Of a DNA stretch of 64,000 nucleotides, positions 590 to 49,613 are shown in pieces. The stretch is taken from sequence record PZ386947.1. One strand, 5' to 3'. A program made the position numbers and the translations under genes. Source of the stretch: a phage. The notes beneath the pieces are model-generated. The model ran no database searches. It worked only from the letters and a program-made list of their open reading frames with translations, and had not been told where the DNA came from. The stretch's first letter is position 1, and every line of letters begins with the position of its first letter.

Positions 590-3286
590 TCAGCCAAACA
601 GGAAGTCTAACGAAGCTTTTTCTTCATAGTCCATACCAGCCGATTCACACATACCCGCAAGCGGTTTAACAAACGATTTTTGGAACAAAGTTGAGTAGTC
701 AATCCAAGATAGTACATCAGAACGAATTTCTTTTGGAAGTTCTGTACCCGATGGCCAAGCAATGCACTTATCACCAAACGGATTTCCTTCACGTAATGGA
801 AGAACCATTACTTTATTTCCATCCAAAATTGGAGCTACACCCAGACCACTAACAGCTCGACGATAAGTTAGCACACCACGAATATGGAACGGGCATTTAA
901 ATCCTGGCCAACCTTTATCATCATATTTCGCTATATCGTTCGCAGTTTTTACTTCAGCAATAACTTTATAGTCAAGTTGACGATATTCTTTCTCGAAGTT
1001 CTTGTAATATTCTTGGACAGACTCTTCGCCTTCCTGAAGAATACGACGAATACTTTCTTCGAGAGCTTCTTGGACCGCTTTAGGCGTTGAACTCTGCTGA
1101 GTTTCCATACCCATGATTTTTAGATGTGGTTCAGCAAAACGCTTATCTTCCATATCATAAACGTTCAGAGCATAACGCTTTTTCGCTTTCCAAAATCCAC
1201 CAACACCCTTTGAACCAAGTGGAGGGCAAGAAATAGCTTCACGGTCCATATGCATCAGATGCTCGCGGTTATTCATATAATCACATAACTCACGATATGC
1301 AACATCAATCATAGGTTCCATCTTTTTCTTACCGAACTGATTCATGAATTCAACTAAATCGTTCTGCTCTTTGAATCGGTCAAGACCAACTTTTTCAATA
1401 ACTTTATCTACACAAACATATACAGAATCAGTATCACCCGCTGCGATGAAATCTTCGCCATTAGTTCCACACACCTTATTCAGGTATTCATTAATTTTAC
1501 GAGCAATCCACTGAATACCAACTTGACCAAAAATTGTGATAGCAGTAGCATTTCGCAAATCATAGTAACGGAAATGAATATTACCAAGAGCACCATAAAG
1601 ACTGTTGATAAGAATTTTACGGTTTAGCTGATTTGTGTTAGCAAGTGTAGCTGCTTTTTCACATTCTTCGATCAGACTATTAAGAACAGATTCGGTGTAA
1701 TTCGATAATTCATTTAAGAAATCATCACTGAACTTAACATATCGTTCAACTTCTGGTTTAGTTGAGCGAGACCCTGCACCTTTCATAATAATCTTTTTAA
1801 TAGCTTCGGCATTCATTTCTTCGGCGAACATTTTCTTTTTCCAATCTTTACGTTGGAAAAATACTTTAGCGATTTCCTTTGGAATGATACCTTCTTGATG
1901 CTTATCATACATCCATCCATTCGGAGAACAAGAATATTCATCACTTGGCTTAGGAGCTGTTCCTGCGATATATTCATGAATTGGATGAACTTTAAACTGA
2001 CCACGAATAGTCTCAGGACTAATGTTAACCTGACGAATAATGCTAGGATACAGAGACGTCAAGTCAAAACTCATAATGTATCGACGAGCAATCGGTTTAG
2101 GTTCAAATACAAATGCACCTGGAAAACTTTGTTTAACGTGCGAACCTTGTTGAGGAATAACCTTATGTTCACCTTTCAACGAGTTAAAAATAATAGCATC
2201 CCAAGTTTTAATAGGACTCATTACACCAGAAAAAGGCATTTTAGCATAATAAGACATACTTAAAACTAGATCGATAAACCCACGAATTTTATCAATTGCT
2301 TGAACTGATTCTACGTCAATGATGTTATAACTAATGTATCGTTGATGATTAGTCTCACGAAGTTTATTAATAGGACCGTCGTATGGCAATTTACCTTTTT
2401 TGGTTTCATGTTGAGCAACTGATTCCAAAGAGAATGATGGCAAATTAGTAAATGCGAATTTCTTGTACAAATCTAAATAATCAAGAATAGATACGCCATC
2501 AATAGAATAAATTTCTTTGCTACCGTACATATTTTGAATTAGTTTAGATTTTACTCGACCGATTGGAGAGAAGCGTTTCATACTGCGTTCGCCCAGAACC
2601 ATTTTAACACGATTCATGATATACGGAACGTCAAATCCCTCAATATTCCAGCCGGTAAAAATAGCAGGTCTTTTCTGTTCCCAGAGATTAATATATTCCA
2701 TGAGCATATCACGCTCATTATCAAATGGCATATAAATTACTCGGTCAAGAATTTCTTGAGGAACTTCATCACCACCTTCACAGTCAAGTTTAGCAGCTAA
2801 CTTTGCATCCCATTTTGATACTGAACCGTACATTGAATTCAACAAATCAAAGACGTAAAAACGGTCGTCAATTGAATCATAATGAGTGATAGCATCAATT
2901 TCATATTCTGCTTTCATTGGGTCAGGAAATTTATCACCAGTAACCTCAATGTCACAGTTAGCTACACGAACAAATTTTCGGTCATAAACAATTTCTGAAC
3001 CATATGTATCACTGATATAAGCGAGTTTAAAATCGTTCATACCGAGAGCTTCGAGACCGATGTCTTCCATTCGCTTCATCCAATCTCGAGCATCTTTCAT
3101 TGATGGAAATTTTTGAGGAGCGCAGTTTTTACCATAGATGTCTTTGTATTTTGACTCTTCCTTACAATGCCTAAACATAGTTGGAAGATATTCTACTTCA
3201 CGAGTACGTTCCTTTCCGTTTTCATCAATATAACGTTCAACAATGTTATTTCCGACTGTTTCAATAGAGATATAAAATTCTTTCAT
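590..3286 (-). CDS. 43: DNA polymerase gp43 (family B, with 3'-5' exonuclease)
   Basis: 898 aa ORF; N-terminus MKEFYISIETVGNNIVERYIDENGKER..., exo motif FDIEV, polymerase motifs SLYPSII and YGDTDS; same length as T4 gp43. Confidence 0.97.
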   Translation of the reverse strand: MKEFYISIETVGNNIVERYIDENGKERTREVEYLPTMFRHCKEESKYKDIYGKNCAPQKFPSMKDARDWMKRMEDIGLEALGMNDFKLAYISDTYGSEIVYDRKFVRVANCDIEVTGDKFPDPMKAEYEIDAITHYDSIDDRFYVFDLLNSMYGSVSKWDAKLAAKLDCEGGDEVPQEILDRVIYMPFDNERDMLMEYINLWEQKRPAIFTGWNIEGFDVPYIMNRVKMVLGERSMKRFSPIGRVKSKLIQNMYGSKEIYSIDGVSILDYLDLYKKFAFTNLPSFSLESVAQHETKKGKLPYDGPINKLRETNHQRYISYNIIDVESVQAIDKIRGFIDLVLSMSYYAKMPFSGVMSPIKTWDAIIFNSLKGEHKVIPQQGSHVKQSFPGAFVFEPKPIARRYIMSFDLTSLYPSIIRQVNISPETIRGQFKVHPIHEYIAGTAPKPSDEYSCSPNGWMYDKHQEGIIPKEIAKVFFQRKDWKKKMFAEEMNAEAIKKIIMKGAGSRSTKPEVERYVKFSDDFLNELSNYTESVLNSLIEECEKAATLANTNQLNRKILINSLYGALGNIHFRYYDLRNATAITIFGQVGIQWIARKINEYLNKVCGTNGEDFIAAGDTDSVYVCVDKVIEKVGLDRFKEQNDLVEFMNQFGKKKMEPMIDVAYRELCDYMNNREHLMHMDREAISCPPLGSKGVGGFWKAKKRYALNVYDMEDKRFAEPHLKIMGMETQQSSTPKAVQEALEESIRRILQEGEESVQEYYKNFEKEYRQLDYKVIAEVKTANDIAKYDDKGWPGFKCPFHIRGVLTYRRAVSGLGVAPILDGNKVMVLPLREGNPFGDKCIAWPSGTELPKEIRSDVLSWIDYSTLFQKSFVKPLAGMCESAGMDYEEKASLDFLFG

Positions 3287-3304
3287 AGATATTCCTTAGT
3301 TTAT

Positions 3305-3324
3305 AGCCCGAGTTATTAGGCTCT
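3305..3324 (-). promoter_or_regulatory. putative gp43 translational operator hairpin
   Basis: Minus-strand RNA AGCC-UAAUAACUC-GGGCU a few nt upstream of the gene 43 RBS region; resembles the T4 gp43 autoregulatory operator as I recall it. Confidence 0.5.
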
Positions 3325-3344
3325 TGATATATTATACTCCAATT

Positions 3345-3362
3345 AAGGGGCCGAAGCCCCTT
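3345..3362 (-). terminator. GC-rich intercistronic stem-loop (AAGGGGC-CGAA-GCCCCTT)
   Basis: Perfect hairpin with CGAA loop between regA and gene 43; no clear U-tract, so possibly a stability or partial terminator element. Confidence 0.45.
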
Positions 3363-3364
3363 GC

Positions 3365-3733
3365 TTAATTACCAATCGTATATTTAGGAACGAGTTTCCA
3401 TTCATGTTTTTGTTTAAAAGAAATAACTCGGAAGTTATTAGTTAAATCTTTCATAAAAGTTCTTTGACCAGGAACGATTTCAATCAGTCCCCAATCTTCT
3501 AACAACCATGCAATCGAATCACGACGAACTTCATCTTCTTCTGTCATTTCAACCTGGCGACCATCCATACGAAGCATTTCTTTAAAATGAACGATATAGT
3601 ATAGTCCTTTTTTCTGAAGAATATGACAGGACTGATACAGAACTTTATCTTTATTATTAGCAATTCCCATACGAGTCAAAGTTTCTTTTACTTTCAGAAA
3701 ATCTTCAGGTTTTTTAAGAGTAATTTCAATCAT
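3365..3733 (-). CDS. regA: translational repressor RegA
   Basis: 122 aa; MIEITLKKPEDFLKVKETLTRMGIANNKDKVLYQSCHILQKKGLYYIVHFKEM... matches T4 RegA in sequence and position after gene 62. Confidence 0.95.
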   Translation of the reverse strand: MIEITLKKPEDFLKVKETLTRMGIANNKDKVLYQSCHILQKKGLYYIVHFKEMLRMDGRQVEMTEEDEVRRDSIAWLLEDWGLIEIVPGQRTFMKDLTNNFRVISFKQKHEWKLVPKYTIGN

Positions 3734-4299: not shown

Positions 4300-5259
4300 T
4301 CACTTCCACTGCATTTCACATGCTAACTGAATGAAAAGATAAGCTAAATGCAATTCAGTATTAGCTGCAATACCATGATACTGATTATTTTCGCCGACAA
4401 TTTCGTACATACGAATAATACTCTGTGGAGTTACACGTGAATAGATTTCTTCGGCAAGTTTACCCACGAACCACGAATAATCGGCTGCATATTTTGGTGC
4501 TAAAGCTCTGAGTTGTTTAACATCTTTATTTTTGAGAGACTCAAGAACATCATCAATAGCACCACGATCGTTAGTAACCAGTGATAAAATACCAGCATCC
4601 AAAACACCTTTAGATGAATAACTATCGAGCTCGCCAATAGTTTTACGAAAATCAGGAAAATTCTTTTTAACCAAAGCTGCTACAACTTTCATATCAGCTA
4701 TAGCAATTCCTTCATGCTTACAGATTTCAGTCAATCGACGAATCATCTGCTTCATCATTTCAATTTTATCTTCATCGGTCGGTTGACCGAACGTAATAAC
4801 TCGGCAGCGTGACTGAAGTGGTTTAATAATACCATCAATATTGTTAGCAGTAATAATAATACTACAGTTTGAACTATAAGCTTCCATAAAGGAACGAAGA
4901 TGTCGCTGAGACTCTGCTAACCCTGAACGGTCAAATTCATCAATAACGATTACTTTTTGACGACCGTCAAATGAAGCTGCGCTGGCAAAATTAGTCAAAG
5001 GACCACGAACGAAATCAATTTTACAATCTGATCCATTCACAAACATCATATCAGCATTTACATCATGACACAATGCTTTCGCTACAGTTGTTTTACCTGT
5101 TCCTGGAGAAGGAGAATGAAGAATAATATGTGGAATCTTACCTTTACTTGTAATAGATTTAAAGGTTTCTTTATCAAAGGCGGGAAGAATACATTCATCG
5201 ATAGTAGATGGACGATATTTCTGTTCAAGAATGTGTTCTTTTTCATTTACGGTAATCAT
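4300..5259 (-). CDS. 44: clamp loader ATPase gp44 (RFC-like AAA+)
   Basis: Walker [11 protein letters not shown], Walker [12 protein letters not shown] motif QSRC; start taken at MITVNEKEH (319 aa). Confidence 0.95.
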
Positions 5260-5293
5260 AATTTCCTCATTCAAGTTTTAGTGTAAATTATAA

Positions 5294-5307
5294 AGGGCCG
5301 AAGCCCT
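5294..5307 (-). terminator. intercistronic stem-loop AGGGC-CGAA-GCCCT
   Basis: Hairpin between genes 45 and 44; member of a recurring GGGCCGAAGCCC hairpin family. Confidence 0.4.
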
Positions 5308-5310
5308 CTA

Positions 5311-5997
5311 TTAAAAATCGTGGGTAGAATCAGCTTCAAGAGCTACTACATAATTCGCATGTTCACCTTCAAATTTAGCAGCACCTTGTTTACCTTTTGC
5401 CCAGAGCAGAAGTTTATAATTTCCTGGTTGCATTTTCATATTTGCCATATTGATAATGAAATTAAATGTATTTTCACCATCATAATCACCAAGAGTCAAA
5501 GAATATTTAACACGGGTCAAAGCAGAATCTTCTACTTTATTAAAACCGTTAATTACGATTTTACCTTCTTTTACCGTGATAGCAATTGTATCAATTTGCA
5601 GACCACGAGATACACGCAACAGTTGTTGAAGGTCTTCAGCTTTAATTTCAGTAACAACAGATGCTACCGGGAATGGAATTGGTTTATTAGGAGCAACTAC
5701 TGTACTCGGATCGGCTGCTGGCCAAAAAATTGTTGAGCGGGCATCAGCAATTTTAATATTTCCATCTTCTGACTGGGAAATTTCTGCATCATCATTAACT
5801 AGCGACAGAATACCGAGAAAACCGTTCAAATCGTAAATTGCTACATCAAAATCAATAACGTCAGAAATATTTGCTTCCGCATAAGTTGTACCATTAACTG
5901 CGCGAGTCATAATAAATTGACCGGATTTAAGCATAATACCGGAGTTAATAGTAGCGAAATTTTTAAGCAGAGCAGTAGTATCTTTAGACAGTTTCAT
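5311..5997 (-). CDS. 45: sliding clamp gp45
   Basis: 228 aa; MKLSKDTTALLKNFATINSGIMLKSGQFIMTRAVNGTTYAEANISD... matches T4 gp45. Confidence 0.96.
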   Translation of the reverse strand: MKLSKDTTALLKNFATINSGIMLKSGQFIMTRAVNGTTYAEANISDVIDFDVAIYDLNGFLGILSLVNDDAEISQSEDGNIKIADARSTIFWPAADPSTVVAPNKPIPFPVASVVTEIKAEDLQQLLRVSRGLQIDTIAITVKEGKIVINGFNKVEDSALTRVKYSLTLGDYDGENTFNFIINMANMKMQPGNYKLLLWAKGKQGAAKFEGEHANYVVALEADSTHDF

Positions 5998-8393: not shown

Positions 8394-9248
8394 TCACAAT
8401 GAAGAAAATTCTTTAACTAAAGCCTGTAATGAAGCCTCTATTGGATATCCATTCTTAACTAACATTTTCCTAAACATTACATGTTTAGGACGATTATATG
8501 ATATCCACAATTCATACAATTTATCTTTATTATCCCAATGATAGCCTTTTCGTCGAGATGCTATATGAGCTTTTCTAATCTCCGGATTTTTCCAACTAGC
8601 AGCTACTGAATTTGATATAGCTATTTTATATTCAGGTTTTGATAAAGCAGCACGAACAGCCTTTTGGTGTTTAATTTTATTTTCTTCGTTATTAAACCAT
8701 TCCCTTGAAGCCATTGAAATTTTTTGTTTTGTTTTAAAATTATTTAATCTTTCTTTATTATCTTTCCTATTTTTTGCTACTGAAAAATATTTTAATGCCC
8801 TTTCTCTAGCAGCATTTCTATTTTGCGGATTTGAATAATACTGTTGAAGCCTTTTTGATATTGTGTCACTTACATCTTGTTTTATAAAACTATATTCAGC
8901 AGCTATTAAATCAACTTCGGCTAAAGATAAATTTTTATATGTTTTTCCTGACATCATTCTATTTAAAGCATTTAGCATTTTTCCATTTTTACCTTTTGCT
9001 AATAAGAAGTGTGCTTTAAAATGATTAAAATGACTTAAATTAACTAAATTCCATGTAGATTTTAAATATTCAGGAAATATTGATTTAGGAAGCACGTGGT
9101 GTGCTTCCGTTTTACCTGGAGTTTTAACAGTTGAATTCACAGAAATAAAATTAATGTAAGACTTGGCGTCTTCTTCACTCAACGCTAATTTTTCAACTAA
9201 TTCCTTTATTAAAAATTCATCATTAATGTCAAGTTTAAAATTCTTCAC
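8394..9248 (-). CDS. HNH homing endonuclease with NUMOD-like repeats
   Basis: 284 aa; HNH core EAHHVLPKS...NLVNLSHFNHFKAHFLLAK; C-terminal basic repeats; paralogous to the ORF at 29124..29903. GTG start overlapping upstream stop (GTGA). Confidence 0.85.
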   Translation of the reverse strand: MKNFKLDINDEFLIKELVEKLALSEEDAKSYINFISVNSTVKTPGKTEAHHVLPKSIFPEYLKSTWNLVNLSHFNHFKAHFLLAKGKNGKMLNALNRMMSGKTYKNLSLAEVDLIAAEYSFIKQDVSDTISKRLQQYYSNPQNRNAARERALKYFSVAKNRKDNKERLNNFKTKQKISMASREWFNNEENKIKHQKAVRAALSKPEYKIAISNSVAASWKNPEIRKAHIASRRKGYHWDNKDKLYELWISYNRPKHVMFRKMLVKNGYPIEASLQALVKEFSSL

Positions 9249-16131: not shown

Positions 16132-16602
16132 TTAATCATGTTTCCACACCCCATCGGTATTTGACCAAAGCCGCTGATTATCTGATCCTCTCCACAGCTT
16201 TTTGGTCGGAAGATTTTTCTCATACTTCCCATCAATAATAACATCAACATATTTAAGCATTTCTAGTTGTTTAATATCTTCAAACTTATATCCTGTCCAC
16301 AACCAAATGCTTTTATTTGGATAAAGATTTTTTACTGTTTGAACAATGCAATGAATAACATCTCGATTATCAGGATAGAGAGGGTCTCCTCCAGTTATAG
16401 TTAATCCTTCTATATAATCATTATTCAAACATTCAATTAATTGTTCTAGTGTTTCACCAGTAAATGGAATACCATTTCTAGCATTCCATGTTGATTTATT
16501 ATAACACCCTTCGCATTTATGCAAACAACCTGTAACGAAAAGAACGGCCCTGCATCCAGGGCCGTTCACAAAATCGCAAGGATAAAATCTATCATAATTC
16601 AT
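16132..16602 (-). CDS. nrdG: anaerobic ribonucleotide reductase activating protein (radical SAM)
   Basis: 156 aa; Cys cluster GCLHKCEGCYN; overlaps nrdD start. Confidence 0.93.
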   Translation of the reverse strand: MNYDRFYPCDFVNGPGCRAVLFVTGCLHKCEGCYNKSTWNARNGIPFTGETLEQLIECLNNDYIEGLTITGGDPLYPDNRDVIHCIVQTVKNLYPNKSIWLWTGYKFEDIKQLEMLKYVDVIIDGKYEKNLPTKKLWRGSDNQRLWSNTDGVWKHD

Positions 16603-18416
16603 TGGTGTTTAACCCTATGCATGATTTCTTTATTTTTACCGAGATTAAATCCGCGTTCGTTCGGATTTCCCAAATAACCACATGTTCTTCTTATTGTGTT
16701 CATCTTTTTAGGATCAGTTTCTCCACAAATAGAACAAACAAATCCGTTTTCAGTAGGAGTCATTTCATGGGTACTTCCACATGTAAAACATTTATCTACT
16801 GGCATATTAACACCAAAATAATCTAAATGTTGTGCAGCATAATCCCATACGGCCTCAAGACCCTTTAAGTTATTTTTCATATCAGGAAGTTCAACATAAG
16901 AAATGTGACCACCTGTCGCAATGAAATGATATGGCGCTTCACGAGAAATCTTTTCAAACGGAGTAATATTTTCTTCTACTGAAACGTGGAAACTGTTAGT
17001 GTACCAGCCTTTATCGGTAACATCTTTTACACTTCCATATTTTTCTGTATCAAGTTTACAGAAGCGATAACAAAGGTTTTCAGCAGGAGTCGAATATAAA
17101 CTAAAAGCAAATCCAGTTCTTTCAGTCCACTGTTTAAGATGAGCATTCATTTTAGTTAAAATTTCTTGTCCAATATCACGACCGACAAGAATATTCAATT
17201 CGTGAATACCAATGTATCCTAGGGACACTGAACTTCTACCGTTTTTAAATAACTCAATTATGTCGTCATCAGGTTTAAGACGAACCCCGAATGCACCTTC
17301 TTGGTAAAGAATAGGAGCAACAGTAGCTTTAACTCCTTTTAAGGAACTAATTCTACACATCAATGCTTCAAAACATAAATCCATTCGTTCATTGAACAAT
17401 TCAACAAATTTCTGTTCATTGAATTGTGTTCCAATATAAGAATCTAACGCGATGCGAGGAAGATTCAATGTTACAACACCAAGATTATTACGTCCATCAA
17501 GAATTTCATTGCCAGTCGAATCTTTCCATACGCTCAAGAAACTACGGCATCCCATCGGAGAAACAGGAACAGATGAACCAGTGATAGCTTTATTGTTCTT
17601 AGCCGAAATGATGTCAGGATACATTCTTTTGCTTGCGCACTCTAAAGCAAGCTGCTTAATATCATAGTTCGGGTCGTCTTTATAAAGATTAACACCTTCT
17701 TCAACGAACATAACAAGCTTAGGGAAAATAGGAGTTATCCCATCACGACCAAGACCTTTAATACGATTTTTCAGAATTGCTTTCTGAATCATTCGTTCAG
17801 TCCAGTCAGTTCCCGTACCAAATGTAATTGTTACAAAAGGCGTTTGTCCGTTTGAACTAAAGAGAGTATTTACTTCATATTCATAAGCTTGGAATGCATC
17901 GTATACGTCTTTTTCTGTTTTAGATTGAGCATAATTTAACGCATCAGCGATTTGCCATTTTTCTGCATCCTCAATATGTTTTGCATAGGTGCGTTTAACA
18001 TAAGGAGAAAGTACTTTATCTACATTAGCAAAAGTCGTTCCGCCGTATTGATGGGAAGCAACCTGTGCAGTAATTTGTGCCATAATTGCAGTAGCAACAC
18101 CGATTGATTTAGGAGTTTCAATCTGTGCATTACCAAGCTTAAATCCATTCTCAAGCATTCCTTTTAAATCTACTAAACAACAATTAGTAAATGGAAGAGC
18201 AGGGGAATAATCAATATCGTGGAAATGAATAATTCCGCTTTCATGCGCTTTCATAATAAAAGACGGGACCATATTTTTGGCAATGTGTTTAGACACAATA
18301 CCAGCCATAAGGTCCCGTTGAGTTGGAAAAACACGAGAATCTTTATTAGCATTCTCGTTTAAAAGGTCTTTATTAGTTTTATGAATCAATCCTTCAATTT
18401 CTTTTTCAATTGTCAT
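16599..18416 (-). CDS. nrdD: anaerobic ribonucleoside-triphosphate reductase, uninterrupted
   Basis: 605 aa continuous ORF; C-terminal zinc ribbon and glycyl radical motif RRTCGYLG. Confidence 0.95.
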   Translation of the reverse strand: MTIEKEIEGLIHKTNKDLLNENANKDSRVFPTQRDLMAGIVSKHIAKNMVPSFIMKAHESGIIHFHDIDYSPALPFTNCCLVDLKGMLENGFKLGNAQIETPKSIGVATAIMAQITAQVASHQYGGTTFANVDKVLSPYVKRTYAKHIEDAEKWQIADALNYAQSKTEKDVYDAFQAYEYEVNTLFSSNGQTPFVTITFGTGTDWTERMIQKAILKNRIKGLGRDGITPIFPKLVMFVEEGVNLYKDDPNYDIKQLALECASKRMYPDIISAKNNKAITGSSVPVSPMGCRSFLSVWKDSTGNEILDGRNNLGVVTLNLPRIALDSYIGTQFNEQKFVELFNERMDLCFEALMCRISSLKGVKATVAPILYQEGAFGVRLKPDDDIIELFKNGRSSVSLGYIGIHELNILVGRDIGQEILTKMNAHLKQWTERTGFAFSLYSTPAENLCYRFCKLDTEKYGSVKDVTDKGWYTNSFHVSVEENITPFEKISREAPYHFIATGGHISYVELPDMKNNLKGLEAVWDYAAQHLDYFGVNMPVDKCFTCGSTHEMTPTENGFVCSICGETDPKKMNTIRRTCGYLGNPNERGFNLGKNKEIMHRVKHQ

Positions 18417-18886
18417 TTTAAACTCTTTCTAAGCTGCTTCTTAAATGAAGCTATTAATTGTGTTTTGGTGTCAGATTCATTATATTCAAATCCTCTTTGA
18501 AGCATCTCGGCCATCATTTCCTCTTTTCCTAAACGAGAAAATTCCTTTGTTTTATCTCCAACAAAGTTAGGGTGAATATTATTTTGGGTGTAATCGGATT
18601 TTAAATAAGTAAGTAAATTTTCTAACCATTCAAGATAATCAACACCTTGTCCCTTTAAGCCAGAACGATTAAATTTGTGCTTCATTTGACCTTCTGCGGC
18701 ATTACAGAGATTACAAAGCAATCCACGTACCTTTCCTGCTTTTGGTCCATTTAATTCATGGTCATGATCAAGATGATTAGCTTGAACATCAGGATTTAGT
18801 TCTCGTTGGCAAATTAAGCATTTACCGTTTTGTGCATCATAAAATTTCTGTTTTTCTTCTTTATATAATTTGCCAGTCAATAACAT
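18413..18886 (-). CDS. 49: endonuclease VII (Holliday junction resolvase)
   Basis: 157 aa; MLLTGKLYKEEKQKFYDAQNGKCLICQRELNPDVQANHLDHDHELNGPKAGKVRGLLCNLCN... matches T4 gp49. Confidence 0.95.
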   Translation of the reverse strand: MLLTGKLYKEEKQKFYDAQNGKCLICQRELNPDVQANHLDHDHELNGPKAGKVRGLLCNLCNAAEGQMKHKFNRSGLKGQGVDYLEWLENLLTYLKSDYTQNNIHPNFVGDKTKEFSRLGKEEMMAEMLQRGFEYNESDTKTQLIASFKKQLRKSLK

Positions 18887-28129: not shown

Positions 28130-29176
28130 TCATTTATAATAACTTCGGTGGTTTTCAAGATAAACCCTCTCAAGGAAGTCATCCCAAAAACCCATGTCTA
28201 CTTTTTGCTGCATACCGTTCTTAGAAGCTTCAGTAGATGCTGCTTCTACTTGATCGACCACATCTTCCAAAAACTCTTGAACCGTTTTAAATGGATGTTT
28301 ACCCAACTTCACGTCGAGAATAAATGGAGCATCTTGGAGTGGATAAACCAAGTCACCAGTTTTGTAAATTTCCAATAGTTGGAGTCCACCACGGCAAGCA
28401 TGACTCATAGCTTTCCAGTCAATACCTTCATTGGCTTCGGCCTTACGAGCACGTTCACCGTATTCAGCATCTAATTTGTTCAGTGACTGCTTAAGCTCAA
28501 TAAGAGAAAGCGTTGTCTGATATTTACGACCCAACACTGTGTAAAACGTCTGTGGGCCTGTTTTCTCATGATTATGGAACACCCATTCACAGAATTCGTT
28601 TTCTGGAAGACGATGCTTAATATCTTCAACTTTAGTACGACGCTGCTTAATGGAACCGTCTTCTTGGTAATCAACCCATTGCTCAGGGATTTGATTAACT
28701 ACTTTCAATACATCGCGTAATGCAGCCAAACGAGAACCCTTAACGCCGTATTTAGAAGCTTGCTTACGGACATATCCTAAATAGGATTTCATGTTAGTCG
28801 TATAAAAACGAGAACGGTTGTCTTGAATAAACTTCCACACATCAGGCAAATCAGATTTAACCACTAACTCAGGTGGAGTGTGAAGCATATCTAACGCTAC
28901 AGTTTCACCATCTGCTGCTAATTTAAAGAAATATTTAAGACTATACAATTCGTGGTCAATATCATCTTTAGTGTTTTTAGATGATGTGTTGTTAGTGTTT
29001 TTACTCATATGCTCTTTAACATTTCCGATAAGAATATCGCGAGCAGGAGGAACAAAAATTTCTTTAAAATCTACATCAGATTCTGGAGTAGAAGTTCCAT
29101 AAAGATGACTACCAAAATAAGACTTAACTACAGTTTTCATTATTAGACCTTTCATAATCTTCATTAAATTGTACAA
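28130..29176 (-). CDS. predicted nucleotidyltransferase (pol-beta-like NTase fold)
   Basis: 348 aa; N-terminal motif YFGSHLYGTSTPESDVDF fits the G[GS]x9-13 DxD NTase signature. Start uncertain (M1, M5 or M13). Confidence 0.65.
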   Translation of the reverse strand: MYNLMKIMKGLIMKTVVKSYFGSHLYGTSTPESDVDFKEIFVPPARDILIGNVKEHMSKNTNNTSSKNTKDDIDHELYSLKYFFKLAADGETVALDMLHTPPELVVKSDLPDVWKFIQDNRSRFYTTNMKSYLGYVRKQASKYGVKGSRLAALRDVLKVVNQIPEQWVDYQEDGSIKQRRTKVEDIKHRLPENEFCEWVFHNHEKTGPQTFYTVLGRKYQTTLSLIELKQSLNKLDAEYGERARKAEANEGIDWKAMSHACRGGLQLLEIYKTGDLVYPLQDAPFILDVKLGKHPFKTVQEFLEDVVDQVEAASTEASKNGMQQKVDMGFWDDFLERVYLENHRSYYK

Positions 29177-29903
29177 TCAATCGATGATAATTAGATTTTG
29201 GATATCCTAATTTACTTATATAAGTTCCGAATGACCCACGTTTAGGTCTATTTAATTTAATCCATAACTTATAAAGTAAGTCATAGTCTTGCCAATGTTT
29301 ACCAGTTCTTTGTCTAATTTTAGATGAATTTGATTGTTTCTTTTTAGTTTCAAAATTATTCAAAGATTTTTTGACTGCAGCAGAGTGTTTTTCTTTAACT
29401 CCCGGTCGTTTAAAAGCAGCTTTCACCCCTTTAGATATTTTTTCTTTAACTTCCGGTTTGTTTTGTGCTTCTAACTGGGATTCTGAAATTTTAGCCCTTA
29501 TTTCAGGAAGACTTAATGTTATCGAACGTTTTTCTCTGTATTCATTAGACTTCCACATTTCTTTCATTGTATTAGAATGTATTTTTGAAAATTTTTCTCT
29601 AACTAACTGATATCCTCTTGAAGTTAATTTGAGATTTCTTCCTAAAGAATCTTCTCCAAAATTATAAAATGACCACCATGCATAAATTAATCCAGGCGAA
29701 TTATAATGAATTTTAGCTAAAAGCCAATGGGCTATAAAATGCTCTCTAGCTGTTAATAAAACTAGATTATCAGAATCATCATTACCACCAATACAAGATG
29801 GAATAATATGATGCTTTTCCGTATAAAAATTTAATTTAGATTTATCTAATTTTCTGAGTTTTCCTTTCTTAATTAAATTATTATATACTTTAGTATAATT
29901 CAT
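29124..29903 (-). CDS. HNH homing endonuclease, MobD-like, with NUMOD-like repeats
   Basis: 259 aa; EKHHIIPSCIGG...NLVLLTAREHFIAHWLLAK; repeated basic motifs; position matches T4 mobD after the nrdC cluster. Confidence 0.85.
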   Translation of the reverse strand: MNYTKVYNNLIKKGKLRKLDKSKLNFYTEKHHIIPSCIGGNDDSDNLVLLTAREHFIAHWLLAKIHYNSPGLIYAWWSFYNFGEDSLGRNLKLTSRGYQLVREKFSKIHSNTMKEMWKSNEYREKRSITLSLPEIRAKISESQLEAQNKPEVKEKISKGVKAAFKRPGVKEKHSAAVKKSLNNFETKKKQSNSSKIRQRTGKHWQDYDLLYKLWIKLNRPKRGSFGTYISKLGYPKSNYHRLIVQFNEDYERSNNENCS

Positions 29904-43749: not shown

Positions 43750-43825
43750 TGGTCGAGGCAGTAGGGATCGAACCTACGACCTAGGACTTAGAAGGTCCTT
43801 GCTCTTCCTTCTGAGCTATGCCCCG
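43750..43825 (-). tRNA. tRNA-Arg (anticodon UCU)
   Basis: Hand-folded: acceptor CGGGGCA/TGCCTCG, T-arm CCTAC-GATCGAA-GTAGG (plus view), anticodon loop CTTCTAA, encoded CCA. Confidence 0.85.
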
Positions 43826-43829
43826 TAAT

Positions 43830-43919
43830 TGGGGTGACCGATGGGAGTCGAACCACCCGAGTCGCAATGACAATGGATTTACAGTCCACACCGCTACCTC
43901 TACGGGATAACTCCCCTTA
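43830..43919 (-). ncRNA. tRNA-like RNA with Tyr-type anticodon loop (possible pseudo-tRNA or stable RNA)
   Basis: Sits between tRNA-Arg and tRNA-Ile with CCA-like end; good anticodon stem-loop GUGGA-CUGUAAA-UCCAU but T-stem and acceptor stem do not pair canonically. Confidence 0.35.
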
Positions 43920-43929
43920 ATTCTTAATT

Positions 43930-44004
43930 TGGTGGCCCTGGGTGGAATTGAACCACCATCTGGCGATTATGAGTCGCTTGCTTGAACCTTCCAGCTACAG
44001 GGCC
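43930..44004 (-). tRNA. tRNA-Ile (anticodon CAU, Ile2-type; Met not excluded)
   Basis: Acceptor GGCCCTG, T-arm GGTGG-TTCAATT-CCACC, anticodon loop CTCATAA, encoded CCA. Confidence 0.8.
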
Positions 44005-44005
44005 T

Positions 44006-44081
44006 TGGTGCTGATTGACGGAATCGAACCGCCGACCTTCTCATTACAAGTGAGTTGCTCTACCTACTGAGCTAAATCAGC
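44006..44081 (-). tRNA. tRNA-Thr (anticodon UGU)
   Basis: Acceptor GCTGATT, T-arm GGCGG-TTCGATT-CCGTC, anticodon loop CTTGTAA, encoded CCA. Confidence 0.85.
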
Positions 44082-44086
44082 AAAAC

Positions 44087-44176
44087 TGGCGGAGGCGATA
44101 GGATTTGAACCTATGAGTCGCCGGAGCGACTGCCGGTTTTCAAGACCGGTGCATTAAACCACTCTGCCACGCCTCC
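44087..44176 (-). tRNA. tRNA-Ser (anticodon UGA), class II
   Basis: Sequence GGAGGCGTGGCAGAGTGG...CCGGTCTTGAAAACCGG... with long variable arm; matches T4 tRNA-Ser as I recall it. Confidence 0.9.
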
Positions 44177-44182
44177 AAATAT

Positions 44183-44833
44183 TTATATATTGTTAATTTG
44201 ATTTAGAATTCTTTTTGCTTGAGTATGACTTACGCCAATATGCTTAGCATATTTAGACAATTCGCCACGTTTAGAAAAATCATATAATTTAGAAATTTCT
44301 ATTCTTCTTTTTCTTTCATCCGCAGAAACTTTTGCTTCGTTTGCTTTTGCTATTTTACGTTTAGCTTCTTGAGAATGAGTTTTACCAGCAAAGCCATTCT
44401 TCATTAATCCATTTGAAGACCATCCTTTTAATTTTCCGTTAGAATGTGCCTTTTTAACACCCAATGAAATTAATTCGCGTTGCTGATCTGTCATAGGATA
44501 ATTATTTATATGATCCCATCCACCTTCACCTCCAAGTTTTAAATTATACACATCTGGTCTATTTAAAAACTCTTCTGTGACAATATTTTTCTCGGCTTCA
44601 AGCATAGATTCTTTATCGTCAAAATACTCTAATATTTCTTTAGAAAAATTTTCTATACCATATTTATCTTGGGCTCTTTTTAATAATTTACCAGAACCCA
44701 TATATCCATCATCTAAATTTTCGGTAGAATGCACACCAATATAAATTTTATTATTAATTTTATTTGTTATTTTATAAAGATAAAAATGCATATCAGTCCC
44801 TAATAAAGAACTGAGCGTCTCACGACGAGTCAT
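44183..44833 (-). CDS. segB: GIY-YIG homing endonuclease (SegB-like)
   Basis: 216 aa; GIY-YIG motif FYLYKITNKINNKIYIGVH; C-terminal DNA-binding region; sits inside the tRNA cluster as T4 segB does. Confidence 0.85.
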   Translation of the reverse strand: MTRRETLSSLLGTDMHFYLYKITNKINNKIYIGVHSTENLDDGYMGSGKLLKRAQDKYGIENFSKEILEYFDDKESMLEAEKNIVTEEFLNRPDVYNLKLGGEGGWDHINNYPMTDQQRELISLGVKKAHSNGKLKGWSSNGLMKNGFAGKTHSQEAKRKIAKANEAKVSADERKRRIEISKLYDFSKRGELSKYAKHIGVSHTQAKRILNQINNI

Positions 44834-44837
44834 AAAT

Positions 44838-44911
<74 letters not shown>

Positions 44912-44916
44912 AAATT

Positions 44917-45003
44917 TGGTGCGAGAAGTGGGACTCGAACCCACAAGGAAATCATTCCGCAGCATTTTAAGTGCTGTGCCTTTACCAATTTGACCATTCT
45001 CGC
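44917..45003 (-). tRNA. tRNA-Leu (anticodon UAA), class II
   Basis: Acceptor GCGAGAA, long variable arm, anticodon loop CTTAAAA, T-arm GTGGG-TTCGAGT-CCCAC, encoded CCA. Confidence 0.88.
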
Positions 45004-45009
45004 GCTATA

Positions 45010-45642
45010 TTATTTATTACGTGAAAAAGACTGTTCTATCAATTCTGGACACTTTCGTTCTATCCATTTTCTAGCTTTTTGTGGGCTTATACCTATTATT
45101 TTAGCAGCTTTACTAACCCATCCAAATTTAGAATAATCGATTTTAACTAATTCTTCGTAAATTTCATCAGTTAAAATCTTTTCATTAATATTTACCAGTA
45201 AATGATATAATTTATTATCATTAGCAATTTTAATGAATCTTTTATAGTTTCCGCCTTTACTTAAACCTAATGAAGTAATTGCAGATGATATAGTAGCCGA
45301 ATTTAATAGTGCGTTTAAAATTTCTTCATCACTAACATTATAACGCTTTTTATTATTTTTAATATTTTTACCAGCAAAAGTATCAGTTTGCGAATGGCAG
45401 TTTGGACATAATAATCTTAAATTTGATTTAAGATGATTTTTGTTATTTCCATCAATATGGTCTAATTGCAGAACAATATGCTTATTTTGCCATTTTGAAA
45501 TTTTACAAATTGCACACTCATATGGAAAAATATTTTCTTTTATTATTTTGTCTTTCAGCTTTCCTGTACTAAAATTTGGATGTTTTCCTTCAAAAATTTC
45601 AGCTAATTTAGTATCCATAATATGATTCCCAATTATTAACAA
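45010..45642 (-). CDS. HNH homing endonuclease (zinc-finger HNH type)
   Basis: 210 aa; CAIC...HIVLQLDHIDGNNKNHLKSNLRLLCPNCH HNH-Zn motif; stop codon 7 nt from the tRNA-Leu 5' end. Confidence 0.85.
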   Translation of the reverse strand: MLIIGNHIMDTKLAEIFEGKHPNFSTGKLKDKIIKENIFPYECAICKISKWQNKHIVLQLDHIDGNNKNHLKSNLRLLCPNCHSQTDTFAGKNIKNNKKRYNVSDEEILNALLNSATISSAITSLGLSKGGNYKRFIKIANDNKLYHLLVNINEKILTDEIYEELVKIDYSKFGWVSKAAKIIGISPQKARKWIERKCPELIEQSFSRNK

Positions 45643-47154: not shown

Positions 47155-47379
47155 TTATTCAACGCCAGCGGCTTTCAAAAGTTTCTTAAGATTGGCAACA
47201 CCTTGAGCAGAAAATGTGACCTTGCCACCTTTTTCACTGATAGAACCAACCAATTTAGCAAGTTTATCATTAGGAATTTTTTTAAAATCAGCCAATGTTC
47301 CATCAAAGGTTTTTGAAACAAAAGGCAGTTCGTCTTCGCGTCTTTTAGCTTCTACAATAAATTCTTGATATGTTTTCAT
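47155..47379 (-). CDS. internal-protein-like (capsid targeting sequence)
   Basis: Starts MKTYQEFIVEA, near-identical to the T4 IP capsid-targeting sequence with I-V-E cleavage site; small basic protein. Confidence 0.65.
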   Translation of the reverse strand: MKTYQEFIVEAKRREDELPFVSKTFDGTLADFKKIPNDKLAKLVGSISEKGGKVTFSAQGVANLKKLLKAAGVE

Positions 47380-47415
47380 TTTAGTTTCCATTTGAGTGTT
47401 TGTTTTGATAGGGTA

Positions 47416-47444
47416 ATAGTATCACTACTAAAACCCAATGTAAA
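47416..47444 (-). promoter_or_regulatory. T4-type early promoter
   Basis: Same conserved element as at 47122. Confidence 0.65.
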
Positions 47445-47463
47445 CAACTTTGTGAAAAATTTA

Positions 47464-47751
47464 TTACAAAAGATTTTTAGCAATAATCTTGAGATGTGCC
47501 GCAGAAATGTGTTTAGCTTTAAACAACGCAGTTTCTTCAGCAGGAGAGATAACGATTGTAGCACCATCCTTTTTAGCAGACCACCCATCGCCTAGGTAAA
47601 CAGTACCTTTGATTTCTTCGCCATCAACCAGACTAATCATTGGTTTACCTTCTCGTCCTTTATTTGCTTTAATAACTTCAGAAGTAAGAGTAGCTTCGGT
47701 AATAGTAGAAACCGGGGTAGTTGTAGAAGTAAATTCTTTGAAAGTTTTCAT
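47464..47751 (-). CDS. internal-protein-like (capsid targeting sequence)
   Basis: Starts MKTFKEFTSTTTPVSTITEA; AGGAAA RBS; own promoter copy upstream. Confidence 0.6.
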   Translation of the reverse strand: MKTFKEFTSTTTPVSTITEATLTSEVIKANKGREGKPMISLVDGEEIKGTVYLGDGWSAKKDGATIVISPAEETALFKAKHISAAHLKIIAKNLL

Positions 47752-47781
47752 TTTATTTTCCTAATTAATTTTGATAGGGTA

Positions 47782-47810
47782 ATAGTATCACAACTAAAAC
47801 CCTATGTAAA
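47782..47810 (-). promoter_or_regulatory. T4-type early promoter
   Basis: Same conserved element. Confidence 0.65.
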
Positions 47811-47823
47811 CAACTTTGTGAAA

Positions 47824-48081
47824 TTATTTTAAATCTTCTAATCGTTTCTTCATCTTAGAACCGTTCTTAGCGATTTCGCCTGCATCAGAGCATAATGCTA
47901 AAAGCGCTTTAACTTTAGTTTGGTCTCCTTTAAAAGATGAAGGATCAACAGCAGCAGCAAGTTCTTTAATACGAGAGAAAAGACGCTCAGCTTCAGCTAA
48001 AGCCATTCCAAGCTTTACTTCCATACCGCGGGAAGATTCAGTAATAGTAGTTTTTGTAGCAAACTCTTTGAAAGTTTTCAT
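47824..48081 (-). CDS. internal-protein-like (capsid targeting sequence)
   Basis: Starts MKTFKEFATKTTITES; own promoter copy upstream. Confidence 0.6.
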   Translation of the reverse strand: MKTFKEFATKTTITESSRGMEVKLGMALAEAERLFSRIKELAAAVDPSSFKGDQTKVKALLALCSDAGEIAKNGSKMKKRLEDLK

Positions 48082-48111
48082 TTTATTTTCCTAATTAATT
48101 TTGATGAGGTA

Positions 48112-48140
48112 ATAGTATCACTACCTCATCAGTATGTAAA
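48112..48140 (-). promoter_or_regulatory. T4-type early promoter
   Basis: Same conserved element. Confidence 0.65.
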
Positions 48141-48153
48141 CAACTTTGTGAAA

Positions 48154-48838
<685 letters not shown>

Positions 48839-48839
<1 letters not shown>

Positions 48840-49564
48840 TATAGTACCTTTAGTGTATTTTTAATTTTAGAAAAAAGTTCTTCAAGAGAACCATCGTTTG
48901 TAATTACTAAATCGCCATCACGAATTGGCAATCCAGCTTCTGTAATATGTGTATCATTGGATTTTTGACCAGGACGAACTACATGAATTACTGTAGCACC
49001 CATCGCCCTAGCCGCATCCATTTCATGATCTTGACGGGTATCAGGAACGATATAATAATCATAACCTGAGTTAAATTTATCAAGATAATCTAAAGCAAAT
49101 AATTTTACCCAGTACATGCGGTCGAAGTTATTAACAATCAAATCCGTACCTAGGGCTTGCATCAGACGACGGACTGACCATTGATCTTCAATATTATTTA
49201 TAACGTCAATAATCTTGTTAAATGCTACGGAATTAACTGATTCTTGTCCTTCGTCATCAAAAACAAACACACCCTTAATTGGGCTTTTACCGTTAAGATA
49301 GCAAAATGCTTGTTCCATAATCGTGATTACTTCTGATTTAGTCAGATTTAAATTAGTCTCACGATCATAGTCAATTCCTTCAAACTCTTTACGAGTTAAG
49401 CAAGGATAGTCAGTGTTTGCTGCAAATACTCCCCATGCATAAGCCAATGCATCCTTAATAGGACCAGCAAGTTGGTATTTAACTGCAGAATAATTGCTCA
49501 TGATAAAATCAGCAGTAGTATCTTTTCCACTACGCTTTACACCGCTTAAAAAGATTAGTTTCAT
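48839..49564 (-). CDS. 1: deoxynucleoside monophosphate kinase
   Basis: Start MKLIFLSGVKRSGKDTTADF (P-loop), 241 aa; the ORF-track N-terminal extension is rejected. Confidence 0.95.
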
Positions 49565-49613
49565 GTGTTTCTCCTCAAATTTAATTAAGATTATAACACA
49601 CAAAACTGAAGCA

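Follow-up and report, generated by a model that had tools for sequence, protein, structure and literature searches.

An intact nrdD-nrdG operon in a T4-like coliphage, empty at two homing-element positions, is most likely a naive potential recipient

Analysis of the nrdD-nrdG locus in a 64-kb stretch of phage DNA, referred to as a whole as the window, revealed an ordinary, intact class III ribonucleotide reductase (RNR) operon with T2 architecture. The operon encodes a glycyl-radical anaerobic ribonucleotide reductase together with its radical-SAM activase. Two positions that carry homing elements in some related phages are empty: an intron site in nrdD, which such relatives have filled with a T4-type intron (encoding I-TevII) or a diverged JB75-type intron, and the nrdD/nrdG junction, where mobC, segH or else a longer HNH gene is found in them. 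Since no trace of a past invasion is found in this allele, it is very probably a naive potential recipient of such elements, as judged from comparison with related sequences.

The 3.2-kb stretch around the locus matches, with 100% identity over 3201 bases, Shigella phage CM8 (MK962750.1 / NC_054939.1), a Tequatrovirus and T4-like coliphage from chicken meat with E. coli BL21 as isolation host; a CM8 position minus 23973 gives the window position. The same stretch shares 97-98% identity with T2, RB18, RB27 and many other T-even phages. The genes of the locus are as follows:

18413..18886, minus strand: gene 49 (endonuclease VII), based on the open reading frame (ORF) list, the sequence and the MK962750.1 annotation
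16599..18416, minus strand: nrdD, large subunit of the class III (anaerobic) ribonucleotide reductase, uninterrupted, 605 codons, based on the ORF list and Pfam
16132..16602, minus strand: nrdG, radical-SAM activase of NrdD, 156 codons, based on the ORF list and Pfam
16599..16602, minus strand: ATGA overlap between the nrdD stop codon TGA (16601..16599) and the nrdG start codon ATG (16602..16600), based on the sequence

The features of a class III NrdD that were tested are all present, namely a full-length domain, a glycyl-radical domain with its motif and an adjoining activase gene, nrdG. NrdD matches the Pfam family NRDD (PF13597, E-value 1.7e-171) with residues 21-604 covering positions 1-562 of the 562-position profile, while its C-terminus matches Gly_radical (PF01228, E-value 1.2e-25, residues 481-586) and the translation contains the glycyl-radical motif RRTCGYLG. 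NrdG matches Fer4_12 (PF13353, E-value 4.1e-48) and Radical_SAM (PF04055, E-value 2.2e-07) and carries the iron-sulfur cluster motif CxxxCxxC as CLHKCEGC. At 35% G+C, chance does not come close to explaining an ORF of 605 codons that matches its family over the full length. The MK962750.1 annotation contains the same nrdD and nrdG CDSs as those found here, and the ORF list, the full-length Pfam match and this annotation agree on nrdD being one continuous ORF lacking an intron, as proposed in the first-pass annotation of this DNA. Its further claim of a direct nrdG-nrdD connection with no intervening endonuclease gene is likewise borne out by the shared ATGA (junction sequence CACCAATGAATTATG) and by the deposited CDSs. 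The overlap between the two genes thus exists, but its orientation had been reversed: the stop codon involved is that of nrdD, and it overlaps the start of nrdG, whereas the first pass had nrdD overlapping the stop of nrdG. The gene 49 stop and nrdD start are joined by an ATGA overlap as well, and the two overlaps linking 49, nrdD and nrdG suggest translational coupling along the operon. A G+C-rich hairpin with an 11-bp stem, followed by UUUUCGUU, is located 36-61 nt into nrdG (16542..16567, minus strand); a 101-nt fold of this region yields -34.5 kcal/mol with a z-score of -4.4. The hairpin is terminator-like in form and is probably, in part, a by-product of the codons for NGPGCR.

The first pass had proposed alignment to T4 as a check on its description of the T4 organization, and both parts of this description hold. 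T4 nrdD is annotated in NC_000866 as a two-piece join around the I-TevII gene, and mobC, an HNH-type mobile endonuclease gene, is located between nrdG and nrdD. The complement of selfish elements therefore differs from that of T4, as had been stated, with CM8 lacking both the nrdD intron and mobC. In T4, exon 1 ends with ...GCTTATGAGT and exon 2 starts with ATGAAGTG, the intron between them having TAACGTAAG... as its first and ...CACATTG as its last bases. Based on these boundaries and the alignments, the following equivalents could be located in the window:

between 17879 and 17878, minus strand: empty counterpart of the intron insertion site in T4 nrdD
17859..17888, minus strand: counterpart of the 30-bp I-TevII homing site (-10 to +20), from alignment to the spliced T4 junction

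The insertion point follows nt 538 of the nrdD CDS, which is the first base of the Tyr180 codon. No match to the group I intron family (Intron_gpI) was found in the 64-kb window at the Rfam gathering score, with the T4 intron as control scoring 105 bits. The diverged intron of phage JB75 was missed at the same gathering threshold and was recovered with 72 bits in a focused e-value run, so the continuous ORF and the alignments serve as additional evidence for the absence of an intron from the window.

The I-TevII site reportedly extends from -10 to +20 with cleavage at +13/+15. The CM8 version of this 30-bp site reads GCTTATGAAT / ATGAAGTAAATACTCTCTTT (slash at the insertion point), compared with GCTTATGAGT / ATGAAGTGAACACGTTATTC for the spliced T4 junction. 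The two are identical at 23 of 30 positions, and the seven differences at -2, +8, +11, +14, +15, +17 and +20 are all synonymous. Over the whole gene, 56 of 1818 nt separate CM8 nrdD from spliced T4 nrdD, and the two proteins differ in only two of 605 residues (F65V and Q417R). The densest cluster of differences is found at the insertion site, with nine in 40 nt from nt 537, all synonymous (permutation p ~0.0008). In T2, the classical intronless partner of T4, the site is identical to that of CM8 from -58 to +100. The T4-type spliced junction is absent from all 619 phage records in which the site is contiguous, the closest intronless match showing 94.9% identity over 98 nt, and no T4-like junction was found among 20 intronless IMG/VR junctions, all of which have A at -2. 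The CM8 version is the commonest one, accounting for 7 of the 22 intronless junctions tabulated (CM8 and RB7 included). The 'canonical' I-TevII site, derived from intron-deleted T4, thus occurs in no intronless phage record or IMG/VR contig searched.

The exon sequences flanking the insertion point were aligned for nine phages, among them five with the T4-type intron, two with the JB75-type intron and the intronless CM8 and RB7. Position -2 is G in all seven intron-bearing alleles examined and A in both intronless ones. The five phages with a T4-type intron share G, C, G, T, A and C at +8, +11, +14, +15, +17 and +20, where the bases in CM8 and RB7 are A, T, T, C, C and T; from +32 on, and upstream of -2, the five diverge from each other by genomic background. 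Both JB75-type phages share a flank of their own out to +29. None of the exon positions always linked to either intron lineage is present in CM8. Because the positions linked to the T4-type intron are the same seven at which CM8 differs from T4, they look like a co-conversion footprint in T4 and CM8 looks like a recipient that was never converted. Given these linked positions, the intron-linked interval reaches from the insertion site to just beyond the reported double-strand break and would correspond to the stretch that a donor must supply during repair, from which we infer its origin by co-conversion. The allele of phage fPS-2 is a mosaic: it carries the T4-type intron and short flank together with variants in exon 2 (+200 to +280) that are otherwise found only in CM8 among the nine phages aligned, and an allele partly like that of CM8 has therefore taken up the intron in nature. 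The G at -2 could pair with the C of intron GCUCAU in a possible P1 helix with exon AUGAGU, in which the A of CM8 would leave an A-C mismatch, as judged from complementarity. P10 pairing was considered and rejected as a source of the differences at +8 to +20; all alleles agree in the first seven bases of exon 2, and no plausible P10 would extend as far as the variable positions.

At the second empty position, the ATGA junction of CM8 coincides with the insertion point of mobC in T4, of segH in RB7 and of the long HNH gene in SA20RB. In T4, the ATG overlapping the nrdD stop is the start codon of mobC, and this gene opens with a duplicate of the first nrdG codons (MNYDR), the true nrdG start following 622 nt further on, which makes the CM8 ATGA junction the exact empty site. 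The nrdG sequence next to it also differs between the two phages:

16283..16602, minus strand: first ~320 nt of nrdG, common coliphage allele based on alignments; T4 has a Klebsiella-phage-type replacement

Divergence between T4 and CM8 nrdG is sharp from nt ~106 to ~297 (~55% identity), a stretch in which JB75, RB7 and SA20RB are all of the CM8 type. The T4 block is 93-97% identical to ~135 records of Klebsiella and Raoultella T4-like phages and is, among coliphages, confined to carriers of T4-type mobC. A three-way alignment of T4, CM8 and the mobC-bearing Klebsiella phage Wolf_ER13 gave the following segments:

nrdD, last 100 nt: T4 vs CM8 88/89 identical; T4 vs Wolf_ER13 38/89
mobC: absent from CM8; T4 vs Wolf_ER13 620/622
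nrdG nt 1-113: T4 vs CM8 ~90%; T4 vs Wolf_ER13 identical
nrdG nt 114-318: T4 vs CM8 ~55%; T4 vs Wolf_ER13 ~91-95%
nrdG from ~nt 320 to end: T4 vs CM8 two differences in 174 nt; T4 vs Wolf_ER13 ~30% different

The Klebsiella-phage-type tract linked to mobC is not found in the aligned CM8 nrdG. We infer that T4 mobC came with, or left behind, a foreign nrdG tract of ~320 nt through co-conversion and that the CM8 allele is unconverted. As a tentative proposal, somewhat on the doubtful side, mobC and a conversion tract may have arrived together, the tract beginning exactly at the nrdD stop and ending between nt 297 and 334 of nrdG, in which case the MobC target should lie in the first ~320 nt of the common coliphage nrdG allele carried by CM8. 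The foreign tract in T4 would, under this hypothesis, set bounds on the possible position of the MobC target, which is listed as unknown (PMC2988022, Table 1). If true, homing endonuclease genes pass between coliphage and Klebsiella-phage genera, and CM8-type DNA would be a natural substrate for MobC mapping.

The uninterrupted nrdD-nrdG pair noted in the first pass is a correct observation that is already known, because occupancy polymorphism at this locus is textbook T-even biology. That both nrdD and the nrdD/nrdG junction vary in occupancy among T-even phages has been described since 1987-2005. Variability of the nrdD-nrdG locus is covered in Table 1 and parts of the text of PMC2988022, citing Sandegren et al. 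2005, and nrdD/nrdG are named there as targets of seg and mob endonucleases. The same source terms T4 an oddity on account of its 15 homing endonuclease genes, while T2 is listed with one and RB69 with none (PMC2993671, Table 5).

A present-day census of the locus, covering two intron lineages and three junction nuclease genes, was obtained by searching a database of 50,697 phage records with 200-bp probes centred on the intron site and on the nrdD/nrdG junction. The records include RefSeq/GenBank duplicates and many laboratory T4 strains, and all percentages given here refer to records and not to independent lineages, so that the figures represent rough proportions. The intron site is contiguous in 619 of 692 matching records (89%) and the nrdD/nrdG junction in 560 of 684 (82%). 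The 73 non-contiguous intron sites compare with 69 records carrying one of the two intron types: 25 with the T4-type intron, mostly T4 strains but also PST, fPS-2, G8, Manna, EC128, RPN226 and U5, and 44 with the JB75-type intron. At the junction, segH (so annotated in AY262138 and LC348379) was found in 71 records, T4 mobC in 32, three of them Klebsiella phages, and the longer HNH gene (Ozark/PST type) in 32, ten of them Klebsiella phages. Occupants of the coliphage type amount to 122 (71 segH, 29 T4 mobC, 22 long HNH) compared with 124 non-contiguous junctions. Both sites are empty in between 487 and 560 of ~684 records, these values being bounds. The empty locus is the majority state and probably also the original one; T4 is exceptional in having both sites filled.

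The rarity of the intron (~10% of records), although it is a gene-drive element, could be accounted for if the seven synonymous differences made CM8-type sites poor I-TevII substrates, with intronless phages persisting because their alleles are immune. The absence of the T4-type spliced junction from intronless phages (0/619 records and 0/20 IMG/VR junctions) and the location of the +14 and +15 differences at the reported cut position would agree with such resistance. However, the differing positions fall within the interval from the insertion site to the break at +13/+15, which is obligatorily copied from the donor, so that no selection for immunity is needed to explain why they are perfectly linked to the intron. 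Further, a 99-100% identical T4-type intron is found in several nrdD backgrounds, including the partly CM8-like one of fPS-2, pointing to recent entry into natural alleles. Many substitutions are tolerated by GIY-YIG homing endonucleases, and this general property also argues against resistance. Taken together, we consider resistance unlikely and favour a naive recipient over an immune variant. It should be noted that CM8 departs from the laboratory-defined T4 site at 7 of 30 positions, two of which (+14 and +15) are at the cut, so that its sensitivity to enzymes of the I-TevII type is an assumption. The CM8 junction at the insertion position is uninterrupted. Indirect support for the first-pass suggestion of a homing-target allele comes from the identity of this site with that of intronless T2, from the lack of exon positions linked to either intron lineage and from an nrdG without the foreign tract found with mobC in T4.

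CM8 might instead descend from a phage with the intron, with a nuclease gene at the junction or with both, followed by precise loss. A cycle of gain, decay and loss is expected of homing elements, and T4 itself provides a precedent for a decayed nuclease gene in the I-TevIII relic (PMC1865063). Such an event would have left no footprint in CM8, however, which has A and not G at -2, the intronless pattern from +8 to +20, an nrdG of the common coliphage type lacking the Klebsiella-phage-type tract, an nrdD 3' end unlike the diverged segH-adjoining form of RB7 and the exact ATGA junction common to 560 records. Reconversion by an intronless allele would erase any footprint and look the same as an allele that was never invaded. 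Weighing these points, secondary loss seems quite improbable, even more so than resistance. An assembly error in the deposited genome that removed an intron or nuclease gene is scarcely credible: nothing was found in its favour, the same contiguous arrangement is present in hundreds of independently sequenced phages, and nrdD has an intact reading frame encoding a full-length protein.

For a naive recipient, which remains our preferred interpretation of the CM8 allele, co-infection with an element-bearing relative would allow the nuclease to cut or nick the CM8 allele, and repair from the donor would then copy the element plus a short flank into it. This outline of homing into CM8 draws on the known homing mechanism and on the comparative footprints and should be read as a prediction. 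CM8/T2-type DNA represents a realistic test substrate for I-TevII, its 56%-identical homologue, SegH and MobC.

Compared with named phages, CM8 and T4 have orthologous genes at this locus, with gene 49 upstream and 55.8/nrdH downstream in both. T4 nrdD (sunY) contains a 1033-nt group I intron encoding I-TevII, a GIY-YIG enzyme, after nt 538, and T4 carries mobC at the nrdD/nrdG junction, whereas CM8 has neither. The JB75-type intron, found in JB75, SHSML-52-1, N2, SA20RB and others, belongs to group I as well (1045 nt, Rfam 72 bits) and is inserted at the very point left vacant in CM8; a distinct exon flank is linked to it, and its nuclease shows 56% identity to I-TevII. RB3, RB7, T6 and PP01 encode segH, a 735-bp GIY-YIG gene, between nrdD and nrdG (Sandegren, Nord & Sjoberg 2005, as cited in PMC2988022), which is absent from CM8. 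The nrdD gene of RB7 is intronless, with a site identical to that of CM8 from +1 to +37, and its nrdG is of the CM8 type; in contrast to CM8, the last ~80 nt of RB7 nrdD have diverged, resulting in 11 changes in the last 22 residues. The closest counterpart in organization is T2, which, like RB69, RB18, RB27 and most Tequatrovirus and Mosigvirus records, has an uninterrupted nrdD, the ATGA overlap and no nuclease gene, and which is 97.6% identical to CM8 over 3.2 kb with scattered point differences only.

The mobile endonuclease gene of the T4 nrdD/nrdG junction and the start of the nrdG gene that it adjoins are both of a foreign type. When positions 4600-5539 of the T4 locus (NC_000866) were compared with positions 2492-3450 of the Klebsiella phage Wolf_ER13 locus, the HNH endonuclease gene mobC was found to be 620/622 identical, and the initial ~320 nt of T4 nrdG, equivalent to window 16283-16602 in CM8, were likewise of the Klebsiella-phage type. 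CM8-like flanks are found on either side of this foreign stretch, with breakpoints located at the nrdD stop codon and within nrdG between nt 297 and 334. Based on these alignments, the mobC and nrdG stretch looks like a nuclease-associated conversion tract common to different phage genera.

RB7 carries the GIY-YIG nuclease gene segH at the same junction. The final ~80 nt of its nrdD (RB7 locus 1591-1670, equivalent to window 16599-16680) are strongly diverged, resulting in 11 residue changes among the C-terminal 22 residues of NrdD. This diverged nrdD end is a further flank travelling with a junction nuclease gene.

A second group I intron lineage is present in nrdD of phage JB75 (1045 nt, JB75 locus 2048-3092, Rfam 72 bits). 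It is inserted at the exact T4 site, equivalent to window 17878|17879, and encodes a nuclease 56% identical to I-TevII. The JB75-type intron is accompanied by its own linked exon flank and was identified in 44 records, thus outnumbering the T4-type intron (25). The Rfam gathering-threshold run, in which three sources were searched together, missed the JB75 intron even though its 72 bits exceed the 50-bit cut-off; it was recovered by a focused e-value run. True group I introns can go unreported due to the Rfam speed filters.

Two features were located inside CM8 nrdG:
16542-16567, minus strand: perfect 11-bp G+C-rich hairpin, then UUUUCGUU, 36-61 nt into nrdG
16498-16525, minus strand: sigma-70-like promoter match just downstream of the hairpin, TTTGCA-16-TATAAT with TG extension, 10/12

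Folding of 101 nt around the hairpin gave a z of -4.4. The perfect stem results from a Val19-to-Ala change (GTC to GCC) in CM8, while relatives keep the stem via G-U pairs, SA20RB with one two-sided change. The hairpin may serve as an attenuator acting between nrdD and nrdG, or it may follow from the codons for NGPGCR. The promoter-like match may mean nothing, because the region overall contains fewer such matches than shuffled sequences.

Outside this locus, window 47351-48169 holds three direct repeats of ~123 nt, which share 61-88% identity, have spacings of 366 and 330, and lie upstream of or inside the genes for internal proteins. IpI, Ip5 and 57B each appear twice in the record's annotation of 47464-49586.

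CM8 does carry four homing endonuclease genes elsewhere in the window, all on the minus strand, one of which, SegB-like, interrupts the tRNA cluster:
8394-9248, minus strand: homing endonuclease gene (phrog_655), between genes 46 and 47
29124-29903, minus strand: second phrog_655 homing endonuclease gene
43750-45003, minus strand: six tRNA genes (Arg, Met, Thr, Ser, Gly, Leu per the record's annotation)
44183-44791, minus strand: SegB-like GIY-YIG gene, within the tRNA cluster
45010-45618, minus strand: HNH gene (phrog_14736), adjoining the tRNA cluster

Given these genes at other loci, the homing endonuclease complement of CM8 is different from that of T4, not smaller everywhere.
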